Shown here one piece after another: positions 19,908 to 61,042 of a stretch of 64,000 bases of DNA (position 1 is the stretch's first letter; each line of letters begins with the position of its first letter). The stretch comes from the human T2T-CHM13v2.0 reference genome, Homo sapiens, in assembly GCF_009914755.1 (NCBI RefSeq), contig NC_060933.1; one strand, given 5' to 3'. Under the pieces are notes generated by a model, which saw only the letters and a program-made list of their open reading frames with translations, searched no databases and was not told the origin of the DNA. Both the position numbers and the translations under genes were made by a program.

Positions 19908-21170
19908 TAGAGACTAACATTTCAAAGTGAATTTGCCAAATTCATCAAACTGAATTTATAAAAAACAAATGGATCGCTTATAAAATTTACAAGGCTTATT
20001 TCTAAAAGTAACTTTTAAACATTGTGGTTTTTCACCACCTGGATCAATGTGGAGCATTTTGAAATTTTCAGTCCATTAAATTAAGCCTGTTTTTGGTAAT
20101 ATATTTTATACTACTTTATCAATGATACATTATATACATGTTTTAAAACACATTCAATTGTATTTAATGATTTAAATAACTAAAACATAACACCAATTAG
20201 CTAAAAGATTCATTCCCTTATTTTCCAATTCATTACCAAATTTTTGCCAAATCTTACTTTTGCTACTGAAGAAAGAAATAAAAAGCTGAAATCCACAAAC
20301 AATGATGATGAAGAGCCACCAGATTTTAATGTTAATTCCACCTTTTTTTTTTCCAATCAAGCAACTTCTTATTAGGGTTAATAAAGCTGATCATCTGCTT
20401 TTATCTCACTTATGTGCTTGATAAATGAGACATAAACTGATTTAAAAGACAGACAACAAGAAAAGCAAAAGCACCTAAGAAATTCAAAAGCAGAGCAATA
20501 GGCCACTGAAGACTTCATAGAATTTTCTGTTGTTTAAATAGGCTGTTGACAAATATATAGGGCATTTAAATTTGGTGAAAGACAAATTTACAAATCCTTT
20601 TACAGAAATATGCTTCATGTCTTATTAATTGATGTAATTTTCTTATATTCCACATATTTTCTTGATATAAAAATATATACTGAAAACATAGTTCTGAAAA
20701 ATACATGATGTGGGAAAAAACAGACCCAGGAAGATAATCTGACTACCCTTGGTTTAAGCAGCTAGTTGCTATGAACTTTAGTCCTGGGAATGTTACTTCC
20801 TGAAATCAGTGCTTTTCCTACTACACTGTACTGCCCTTAGCCTGAAAAAAAAAAAAAAAAAAACACACATTTCATAAGCGATGGGAAAGAAATTGGTCCA
20901 GAGAAAGGTAAAAACATAATGTCCAAACATGTTCAACTGAAAATTAAATTCAAACATACTGCATCAGTACTTTTTTTGTTGTAAGTATATAAAATGTCAT
21001 CTGCTCTGGCTTTTTAACACATTGAATATAAAATAAAATTTGACCCTCAAATATACACGCATGCATACATGTGCATTTTACTCTCTCAATCAAAGCATCC
21101 ATGATGCATAATGGAAAAAACAATTTGAATTATACTTAAATATAACTCCCATCCATTTGTGTTAGCTTAC

Positions 21171-22588
21171 CAGATTTGTGCTTCTTGTGTTTTGCTTTTT
21201 TTTTGATGATCAATAACTTATTCTGGATCTCAGGTTTGTAAGACTTGAATGCAAGAGAATGAAGACCTTCACGCTTTCTCTGTAAGTTTTCATTCAAAAC
21301 ATCTTTCAATTTCTTTTTTTTCTTTTTCTTCTTTTTTGCCCTCATTTTAGTTAGTTTGAGTTTCTTGTGGCTCTGTAGTGACTGCTCTAATAGAATATCC
21401 CTTACAACTTTGTGGCAGTTAATTTCTGGATGATCACTGTGACTTCCATTTACATGTATTTGGCAAGATTTTAGAGTATTTTCTTTTAATGGACTGGGTT
21501 CAATCTTTATTCTGGAAGCTTCACCGTATTTTTCCTGATTTTCTATAAACCTTATTTCACCTGGACTGAGAGGCTCTCCAAAGCCAGTAACTTCCCCTGG
21601 ACTCCTTGGTTTCTCTAAATTTTCTTTACAACAATCAGTTTTTTTAATTTCACAAGGCCTGCGAATTCTAATTTCATAGTTGGATTTTACTCCCATTTCA
21701 ACAGAGATGTCATGATTATCCAAGATCATTTTAGCAGGACAGCAAGCTGGATCAAAATTATTTTCCTGCTCTTTCTTGAAGGAAGAGGGCAGGCTATCTC
21801 TGCTACATCTATGTTCTCCATTACTTGTACTAACATAGTCACACTTCAATTTCTCCAATTTAATCCGAGGTACTCTTTGTATTTTAATGGGTGGAATTGG
21901 AAATTCTGGGGCCTGAAAGGGTCTCTGTTTATAAATCCGTACATCTGCACCACAGAACTGTGGAAAATGTACATAAGCATTCTCCAAATAATCATAACCA
22001 AGAATAACTTCCCTGCATTCATGGATAGGCTGTCCAAGTACAGCATCTTGAACTTCCTTTTGTGTTTCATACACAAAGTCACAAAGACCCTTAAGTAGCC
22101 ACACTTTTTGGTAAAAAGGTAGTTCGTGAAAAGGTTTTTCTTCCAATGGATTAACTTCTCCAAGAACTTTAAAAAACTGAGGACACAACCCCAGTTTTTC
22201 AGCACAGTTATCAGGATTTTCAGTTTGCCCTACAGCAGTGTACCACTGTTGTACTTTCTGCCTCAGCGCTGCTTCCCAGGTCCTATAAGGCAAAGTAGGT
22301 CTTCGATGTAAGGTAGGTCTGCGATGGGGAGGACTTAATAGAGAAGTCATTATTTTCGATAGAAAAGCATTACACTGAGGCATCAGAAGACAACGTTCCA
22401 GTTCGTAAAAGACTATTTCTGGCAAATTTAGAATTTGCTGAGCTAAACAAAGGAAATGCCCAATAGCTGGAATTTCCCACATGGTCTCCATACAAGTTGG
22501 AGCTGCTTGAGCTAGAAGTTTTCTTTCCCATTCTTCTATTTCCTTTTGACTAGCTTCTTCTGCTTCTTTTCTTTCCTGCTCCCGAAGC
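21171..22588 (-). CDS. BRD10: BRD10 coding exon 3 (1418 nt): DDT/WHIM-like helical module and Lys-rich region
   Basis: Acceptor ttctttag|G, donor CTG|GTAAGC. Lies within the 489-aa ORF; frame matches exon 2; ends in phase 1. Confidence 0.95.
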
Positions 22589-22693
22589 CTAAAGAAATTT
22601 AACAAATTATACTATTATTATTCAGAGGGTACCATAAAATGATAAATTTTAAGTATATTTATCTTTAGTCAAAAAGGCAATCAACTGTCCTAG

Positions 22694-60332: not shown

Positions 60333-60925
60333 CGAGAGAGAAGCGCTAACTTCTGCTCCAGCATCATCTCCAGCTTCTGGCCCTGTTTGGAGATCCAGTG
60401 GTCCACTCCGTGCAGGCGGTAGCACGTCTCCAGCATCAACCTGAAGTCCGCCACGAACTCGGTGATGCCCCCGTACTGGCCGCTGGCGAACTTCTCTTCC
60501 ATCTGCAGCAGACACATGCCCTGTCCGGGCTGCTGCGGGAAGGCGCGACCGCCCCGGCCCCCGCTGCGCGGCCCTTCCGCCACCTCCTCCTCCGCGGTGG
60601 CAACGCCCCCCAAGGGCTGCAGAAAGGGGGCGGTGAGACCCCGGTGCTTCTCCTGCAGGAACTCGCCCAGGATGCGGTAGCCCTGCTGTAGCTCGTAGGT
60701 CAGCTCCTGCTCCTTGCAGCAACCGCCTCCGATCACCATCGCCTCCATCTCTTCCTCCTGATCGTCCGCGTCCTCCAGCGAGGAGGCACTCCTTCCGTGG
60801 GCCGGCCCTGAGGTCTGGGCCGCCGCTGCCACCTCCTCCTCGTCGTCCTCTCCTTCGGCCGCCGGTGGCGGCCGCTCTTCCTCCCCAGCCGGCTCCATCG
60901 CTCCCGGCGTCCCGGGCACACTCAT
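60333..60925 (-). CDS. BRD10: BRD10/KIAA2026 coding exon 1 (aa 1-198): acidic N-terminus plus atypical bromodomain
   Basis: ATG at 60925 (MSVPGTPGAMEPAGEEERPPP...). Bromodomain-like APFLQP...MCLLQMEEKFASGQY...FVADFRLMLETC. Donor TCG|GTAAGC at 60333/60332. 593 nt, ends in phase 2. Lies in the CpG island. Confidence 0.95.
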
Positions 60926-60963: not shown

Positions 60964-61042
60964 CTCGAGGTGCTGGGGGACGCGTGAGCGCGAGCCGCTT
61001 CCTCACGGCTCGGCCGCGGCGCGTAGCCCCCGCCACATCGGG
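60964..61042 (+). ncRNA. MIR4665: MIR4665 annotated hairpin (5p ~60973-60995, 3p ~61009-61034), antisense to the BRD10 5' UTR
   Basis: Sequence CTCGAGGTGCTGGGGGACGCGTGAGCGCGAGC...CTCGGCCGCGGCGCGTAGCCCCCGCCACATCGGG matches my recall of hsa-mir-4665. The arms are complementary (GGGGGACGCG / CGCGTAGCCCCC). Whether it is a genuine miRNA is uncertain. Confidence 0.75.

Follow-up and report, generated by a model that had tools for sequence, protein, structure and literature searches.

A conserved domain of human BRD10 resembles the WHIM part of ISWI-docking modules and suggests a candidate ISWI partner

We analyzed a stretch of 64,000 nucleotides from the human T2T-CHM13v2.0 assembly (contig NC_060933.1; hereafter the window), which carries BRD10 (KIAA2026) on its minus strand. 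A domain of about 190 residues encoded by the BRD10 exon at 21171-22588 is very probably homologous to the part of the ISWI-docking module that is formed by WHIM1 and the N-terminal half of WSD (WSD N-half). For the helices that precede this part, the sequence makes a relationship to DDT plausible, and structure prediction leads us to favor, by a modest degree, docking of BRD10 on the SLIDE domain of SMARCA5 or SMARCA1. The DDT-WHIM module of BAZ1A/B, BAZ2A/B, BPTF, CECR2, RSF1, yeast Ioc3/Itc1 and plant DDT proteins holds the C-terminal SLIDE domain of ISWI ATPases.

The annotated exon is located on the minus strand inside a stop-to-stop open reading frame (ORF) at 21136-22611. As the in-frame exon reference we used window:21172-22587:-, residue 1 of which is protein residue 266 as derived from the exon phases; the whole protein we take to be 2,103 residues long. 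The domain query was window:21883-22515:- (211 residues), and position numbers of the module count along this query. Three in-frame blocks had been described in the initial annotation, and their coordinates and translations agreed with our own letter for letter. The DDT-like block (22336..22491, minus strand; residues 298-349) reads METMWEIPAIGHF...KIMTSLL and comprises the first four predicted helices, which occupy positions 6-10, 14-24, 36-42 and 50-60 in the BRD10 model. The WHIM1-like block (22027..22152, minus strand; residues 411-452) begins with NPLEEKPFHELPFYQKVWLLKGLCDF. The WSD N-half or WHIM2-like block (21925..22014, minus strand; residues 457-486) reads REVILGYDYLENAYVHFPQFCGADVRIYKQ and contains a G-x-D signature and three strands. 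The signature in BRD10 is GYD (residues 462-464), located within the predicted strands at 170-174 and 180-183, and D175 was kept in at least 90% of the BRD10-family alignments A2 and A3. The whole folded module extends over 21925..22500 on the minus strand (residues about 295-486; positions 6-197), with a helical N-terminal part followed by a three-stranded sheet.

The three blocks belong to one conserved domain of about 190 residues. A word-indexed search with this domain returned 286 relatives; the 120 listed were 70-97% identical to the query, and those with names were all from vertebrates. An exhaustive search of 1.84 billion representatives gave 289 matches at E ≤ 1e-3, and among the 150 listed the distant homologues were 31-58% identical. 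When the human genome was searched with the protein query, no paralogue of the domain was found, the next-best matches having E > 5. The core of the module is already held by a Pfam family, PF23450 ('KIAA2026 helical domain', KIAA2026_hel), which matched 22051..22476 on the minus strand (residues 303-444; exon residues 38-179) over its whole 142-position profile (E 4.8e-57, 192.7 bits). This family, known here by its name and profile match, is described by that name as a 'helical domain' only and differs from the module in ending before the WSD-like strands. Beyond residue 500 or so, the exon at 21171-22588 was poorly conserved and gappy in alignment A1.

The bromodomain of BRD10 lies N-terminal to the three blocks, as the initial annotation had stated. 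Pfam PF00439 matched 60377..60517 on the minus strand in coding exon 1 (residues 137-183; E 2.1e-6; 28 bits with a cut-off of 21.7; profile positions 37-83 of 84). Among 62 distant homologues, a bromodomain was found in 33 (16/30 and 17/32 in two Pfam scans), always upstream of the module, and in the remaining homologues the module was near the N-terminus of the predicted protein. Four homologues that did not have a bromodomain (P0193, P0195, P0207 and P0209) exhibited a weak match to the dynein heavy-chain coiled-coil family PF25007 (E 0.008-0.087) some 450-500 residues past the end of the module, which is probably just a coiled coil.

The 62 distant homologues were scanned with the Pfam models of DDT (PF02791, cut-off 22 bits), WHIM1 (PF15612, cut-off 19.1 bits) and WSD (PF15613). 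WHIM1 matched at E < 1 in eight, each time at the C-terminal end of PF23450, and two of these exceeded the curated cut-off (P0242, 23.2 bits; P0239, 20.9 bits). The family thus passed the WHIM1 threshold through these members, with the human sequence itself giving no match. DDT matched below its cut-off at the start of PF23450 in two homologues (P0242, 14.7 bits, E 0.034; P0194, 12.2 bits, E 0.2), and WSD matched below its cut-off directly after PF23450 in four. All of the DDT, WHIM1 and WSD matches were collinear and at the positions predicted from the three blocks; P0194 carried all three in order (DDT 275-320, WHIM1 381-406, WSD 427-443). Weak Pfam matches in orthologous proteins depend on one another, and the same scans repeatedly gave further weak families, namely the dynein coiled coil and RecO_N_2; we therefore made a profile-against-profile test.

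For this test, a BRD10-family alignment of 71 sequences filtered at 75% identity was compared, using hhalign, with exons of BPTF, BAZ1A, BAZ1B, BAZ2A, BAZ2B and RSF1. These exons were obtained from genome-wide DDT, WHIM1 and WSD scans, which gave loci on chromosomes 17, 12, 2, 7, 11 and 14. The names of relatives confirmed the chromosome 17 locus as BPTF, and we presume from their positions that the loci on chromosomes 12, 2, 7, 11 and 14 are BAZ2A, BAZ2B, BAZ1B, RSF1 and BAZ1A, respectively. The comparison set did not include CECR2, whose exons were not picked up by the genome-wide PF02791, PF15612 and PF15613 scans. WHIM1, represented by an alignment of five human paralogue exons, matched BRD10 positions 125-163 over 39 columns (P 3.7e-4, score 26.9), and the WSD N-half matched positions 162-190 (P 2e-4, score 27.6). 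In 30 column-shuffled controls the scores were 9.6 ± 1.7 for WHIM1 and 10.6 ± 1.8 for the WSD N-half, and no shuffle (0/30 in either case) reached the observed score. Judged by these alignments, the resemblance to WHIM1 and to the WSD N-half is more than chance.

Further comparisons gave concordant registers. When alignment A3 was compared with a single BPTF exon ORF, only the G-x-D stretch was aligned, and weakly (E 0.044, hhalign probability 1.2%); family alignments were then built. The BPTF-family template contained 35 BPTF/NURF301 sequences ranging from vertebrates to a cnidarian, and against it the WSD N-half was again matched (P 3.8e-4). When a hidden Markov model (HMM) of the BRD10 family was used to search 29 human loci (2,267 ORFs), the top match was the WSD exon presumed to be that of RSF1 (E 0.015) and the second was the WHIM1 ORF presumed to be that of BAZ1B (E 0.036), both in the right register. 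Outside PF23450, the nearest language-model neighbors were clusters of WSD (0.84), of WHIM1 (0.79) and of plant DDR4 with DDT/WHIM1 (0.75); similarity by this measure is trusted from 0.9, and all three are leads only.

The domain was modeled with AlphaFold2 from 39 diverse sequences with high confidence (predicted local distance difference test, pLDDT, 88.3; predicted template modeling score, pTM, 0.84); in this model a helical body leads into three strands, on which the G-x-D block is located. A model from 14 vertebrate sequences (pLDDT 52.8) was not used in the fold search. When the model from 39 sequences was compared with 48,161 chains using VIA-align, the best structural match was Ioc3 of yeast ISW1a (PDB 2y9z chain B), the solved WHIM protein bound to Isw1, over 180 residues that included the strands. 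The rows at ranks 2-19 showed a different pattern: 17 of these 18 fit calponin-homology (CH), Hook or microtubule-binding heads, with Z 4.0-6.6 over 94-125 residues. They included a Hook-like NuMA entry, augmin, Ndc80/Nuf2, Hec1, IFT81, CEP44, fimbrin, utrophin and IFT54; most are so named in their titles, and the remaining rows we took to be CH-like.

These rows raise the question of whether the helical part of the domain (positions about 5-157) is a CH-like microtubule-binding domain of the kind found in NDC80/NUF2, augmin, IFT81 and CEP44, with a superficial likeness to WHIM. Such a domain would fit a ciliary role, as the available text of the one functional study of the protein locates BRD10 to the basal body and reports its association with acetylated alpha-tubulin (PMC13705004). 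However, the CH-like matches cover approximately half of the model and score below Ioc3, no CH family appeared in the Pfam scans of the 62 homologues, and the signals in the sequence point to WHIM1 and WSD specifically. Further, the same text ascribes the recognition of tubulin to the bromodomain and locates the DZIP1-binding site in a nuclear localization signal region, neither of which is this domain (PMC13705004). We therefore regard a CH-like identity as highly improbable and retain homology to WHIM1 and the WSD N-half.

A complex with the HAND-SANT-SLIDE region of SMARCA5, which the initial annotation had put forward for modeling, was predicted consistently. The partner consisted of residues 735-1025 of a 1,051-residue SMARCA5 orthologue, orthologues having been fetched via the human SLIDE exon. 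The interface score (ipSAE) with the BRD10 module was 0.77, 0.76 and 0.75 in three runs, compared with 0.00 for the best of three controls, so that the prediction passed its controls; the predicted complexes had 52-54 contacts and a partner pLDDT of 81-82, and the runs shared at least 73% of contacts. The mark used for such complexes was reached by 51 of 78 solved complexes versus 2 of 108 mismatched pairs and, in eukaryotes, by 39 of 65 solved pairs that had no like older complex versus 2 of 126 unrelated pairs. The predicted interface joins SMARCA5 residues 929-990 in SLIDE, notably 983-987, to BRD10 positions 13-24, 156-169, 182/184 and 200-203. Positions 13-24, the first DDT-like helix, touch SMARCA5 983-986 in the model, and positions 156-169 cover the stretch in which the WHIM1 helix ends and the WSD strand begins. 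In AlphaFold models of ISW2 and ACF, as described in the part of a preprint that was available, Itc1/ACF1 wraps around SLIDE and places its DDT, WHIM1 and WHIM2 motifs at the SLIDE tip (bioRxiv 10.1101/2025.04.27.650761). The predicted docking site of BRD10, on the SLIDE tip, is like that described for ACF1.

Several results weigh against homology of the complete module and against its docking on ISWI. Human BRD10 had no match at E ≤ 10 to Pfam DDT, WHIM1 or WSD, and the BRD10 exon was absent from the genome-wide matches of PF02791, PF15612 and PF15613 in the same assembly. The DDT part fell short of significance in three comparison settings. Against the human paralogue exons it scored 12.1 (P 0.29), compared with 11.4 ± 2.1 for the shuffled controls, 12/30 of which reached the observed score. 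Against the BPTF family, positions 17-63 were aligned with DDT 27-73 in the register of the initial annotation (P 0.2). In these sequence comparisons, the resemblance of the DDT block does not stand out from chance. WHIM1 compared with the BPTF family only gave P 0.093 with an unchanged register. The C-terminal half of WSD (WSD C-half, WHIM3; a motif of the W...L..L...G.RE..L type) was not detectable in 261 BRD10-family proteins, in which the best match had E 0.34 and the weak matches were scattered. The HMM used was built from five human paralogue exons, the motif being seen in those of BAZ1A/1B/2A/2B and BPTF, and as a positive control it gave 118 matches among 120 BPTF-family proteins (best E 6e-23). 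In the genome scan, the match of the locus presumed to be RSF1 was itself confined to positions 1-51 of the WSD model, which has 69 positions.

Foldseek and sequence searches of the PDB were likewise negative. Foldseek with the model gave no match at E ≤ 1e-3, the top rows being spike proteins with E > 1. When PDB sequences were searched with a profile of A2, bromodomains crowded out other matches, as over half of the A2 rows carry one, and therefore the domain-only alignment A3 was built; its profile gave no PDB sequence at E ≤ 10, and single-sequence phmmer with the domain gave a chance match alone (E 1.1). Thus, the DDT-WHIM1-WHIM2-like module proposed in the initial annotation was borne out by profile comparison for WHIM1 and the WSD N-half, was compatible in register but not significant for DDT (P 0.2-0.29) and came without a WSD C-half; the accompanying structure search was positive in VIA-align and negative in Foldseek.

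Taken at face value, the empty Pfam, Foldseek and PDB sequence searches with the human protein, together with the mutual dependence of the weak matches among orthologues, would fit a lineage-specific helical domain that resembles DDT/WHIM by chance and has no evolutionary link to it. We give this reading a very slight probability. Two separate motifs each reached P of approximately 1e-4 in the expected order and spacing, two homologues exceeded the curated WHIM1 cut-off, and the only solved WHIM protein ranked first in the structural comparison. Further, the nearest language-model clusters carry WSD, WHIM1 and DDT, and the complex model is consistent with a module of this kind.

The points that bear on docking itself are of a different kind. 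Conservation at the predicted contact residues did not exceed that of the remaining domain (entropy 1.80 versus 1.91, P 0.29), and the complex prediction was run without the alignments built for the BRD10 family. Because a like complex, Ioc3-Isw1, is already solved, the pass may reflect likeness rather than binding, and the model's score may in part be memory of that complex. The available text of the functional study assigns BRD10, along with DZIP1, to the basal body and primary cilium and contains no mention of ISWI (PMC13705004). Further, the main text of a SNF2H study reports known subunits only from its co-immunoprecipitation and mass spectrometry (PMC11176080). In Paramecium, according to the text available, the G-x-D signature of the ICOP proteins is not required for ISWI1 binding (PMC11789628), and hence conservation of the motif alone proves little.

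It is therefore conceivable, although on balance rather unlikely, that the domain descends from a WHIM module and no longer binds ISWI, having taken on another role (for instance binding of DNA or linker, or docking of a different partner), be it at the cilium or basal body or in a plain acetyl-lysine reader. A module diverged enough to form its own Pfam family, with the WSD C-half missing and a predicted interface that is not specially conserved, would fit such a loss. Against a loss of binding stands the complex score of 0.76 versus 0.00, in a method whose mark was reached by none of the 84 distant relatives of true partners in its own test. The predicted interface also agrees with that described for Itc1/ACF1 in the SLIDE tip and in all three motifs involved (bioRxiv 10.1101/2025.04.27.650761, available part). 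Further, the DDT/WHIM proteins characterized in the parts of the cited work that were available all bind ISWI (bioRxiv 10.1101/2025.04.27.650761; PMC11789628; PMC11950633).

Docking of BRD10 on SLIDE, which we favor to the modest degree stated above, would proceed as follows. Residues about 295-486 would form a strongly diverged DDT-WHIM1-WHIM2 module, in which one surface would be built jointly by the first DDT-like helix, the terminal part of the WHIM1 helix and the initial WSD strands. The N-terminal bromodomain and the long disordered tail could then direct the remodeler to acetylated chromatin or to other partners. By inference, the DDT-like part would be homologous to DDT, and BRD10 would bind ISWI in cells, affect nucleosome sliding and exclude the other subunits. 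The earlier suggestion that BRD10 defines its own complex with SMARCA5/SMARCA1 is likewise something we infer, with one structure prediction pointing the same way.

In its overall organization, BRD10 shares several features with the human DDT-WHIM subunits (BPTF/NURF301, BAZ1A/ACF1, BAZ1B/WSTF, BAZ2A/TIP5, BAZ2B, RSF1 and CECR2), namely an unchanged order of DDT-like helices, a WHIM1 helix and a WSD N-half with G-x-D and strands, and a bromodomain within the same protein. The starts of the DDT and WHIM1 matches are separated by 115 residues in the BPTF exon and by 113 between the BRD10 blocks. In contrast to these subunits, in which the bromodomain is C-terminal to the module, that of BRD10 is N-terminal. 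Human BRD10 differs further in passing none of the three Pfam models, in a DDT likeness that is not significant and in having no WSD C-half, and no PHD finger, WAC or MBD/TAM domain was found in the Pfam scans of BRD10 and the 62 homologues. If BRD10 is an ISWI partner, its architecture, with the bromodomain first and a minimal module, is unusual. A precedent for ISWI partners that are recognizable only by very weak WSD homology is provided by Paramecium ICOPa and ICOPb, which, in the text available, have weak WSD homology alone, yet were shown to bind ISWI1 by co-immunoprecipitation and by pull-down from Escherichia coli (PMC11789628). They differ from BRD10 in having the WSD motif only, in being modeled on the N-terminus of ISWI1 rather than on SLIDE and in having no bromodomain. 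We consider the chances evenly balanced that BRD10 is an eighth human ISWI subunit of the DDT-WHIM class, which would form its own complex with SMARCA5/SMARCA1 through a minimal module without WHIM3, would carry an acetyl-lysine reader upstream and would be present animal-wide.

The searched literature, outside subscription journals and supplements, contained no link of BRD10/KIAA2026 to ISWI or to DDT/WHIM. In that literature, no paper was found in which either name occurs together with SMARCA5, and beside ISWI they occur in the HGNC paper and one unrelated paper only. KIAA2026 beside 'DDT' led to unrelated uses of 'DDT', and beside the BAZ or CECR2 names to one table of bromodomain genes only among the papers found. 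The HGNC paper reports that the gene was renamed BRD10 solely on a Pfam-N bromodomain match, and the HGNC ISWI gene groups comprise eight named complexes. Six main ISWI accessory subunits are named in the available text of a Nat Genet 2024 study of SNF2H (PMC11176080). The features of BRD10 given in the accessible text of the functional study are the bromodomain, a coiled coil, an FhaB-like region and two nuclear localization signals only (PMC13705004). A lysine run at 21304-21366 on the minus strand (residues about 673-693) coincides with a putative nuclear localization signal region that was mapped there as the DZIP1-binding region (PMC13705004).

Some further features were met in the window and in the genome scans. 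MIR4665 is annotated at 60964-61042 on the plus strand, opposite to BRD10 and just upstream of its start codon, within the first exon of the gene. Two loci at C17:32.95 Mb (L024) and C17:33.04 Mb (L026) gave weak matches to the WSD C-half (E 0.33 and 0.99); over approximately 3 kb, non-coding sequence included, they share 89-92% identity with the BPTF locus (L025), which suggests segmental duplication of part of BPTF. SLIDE-domain matches at L037 (C7:78.32 Mb), L039 (C7:104.11 Mb) and L038 were broken by four stop codons. At these C7 loci, three blocks that are separate in the SMARCA5 locus adjoin one another with 78-84% identity, an arrangement that suggests a processed ISWI pseudogene present in two copies.

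Cited work, as far as its text was available, takes the list of mammalian ISWI accessory subunits to be complete, and if BRD10 docks on ISWI, the extra subunit would mean a new remodeling complex with its own targeting logic. The proposal is a first mechanistic hypothesis for a little-studied protein. In the available text of a 2025 study of 9p syndrome, 'little is known' of BRD10, which is among 24 prioritized genes of the 9p deletion and shows an excess of de novo loss-of-function and missense variants (PMC12551315). If the hypothesis is true, loss of the complex would contribute to 9p-deletion and neurodevelopmental phenotypes, and ISWI remodeling would perhaps be tied to the ciliary and DZIP1 biology of BRD10. 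PF23450 probably belongs with DDT, WHIM1 and WSD, and its placement there matters for the domain annotation of the whole animal family.

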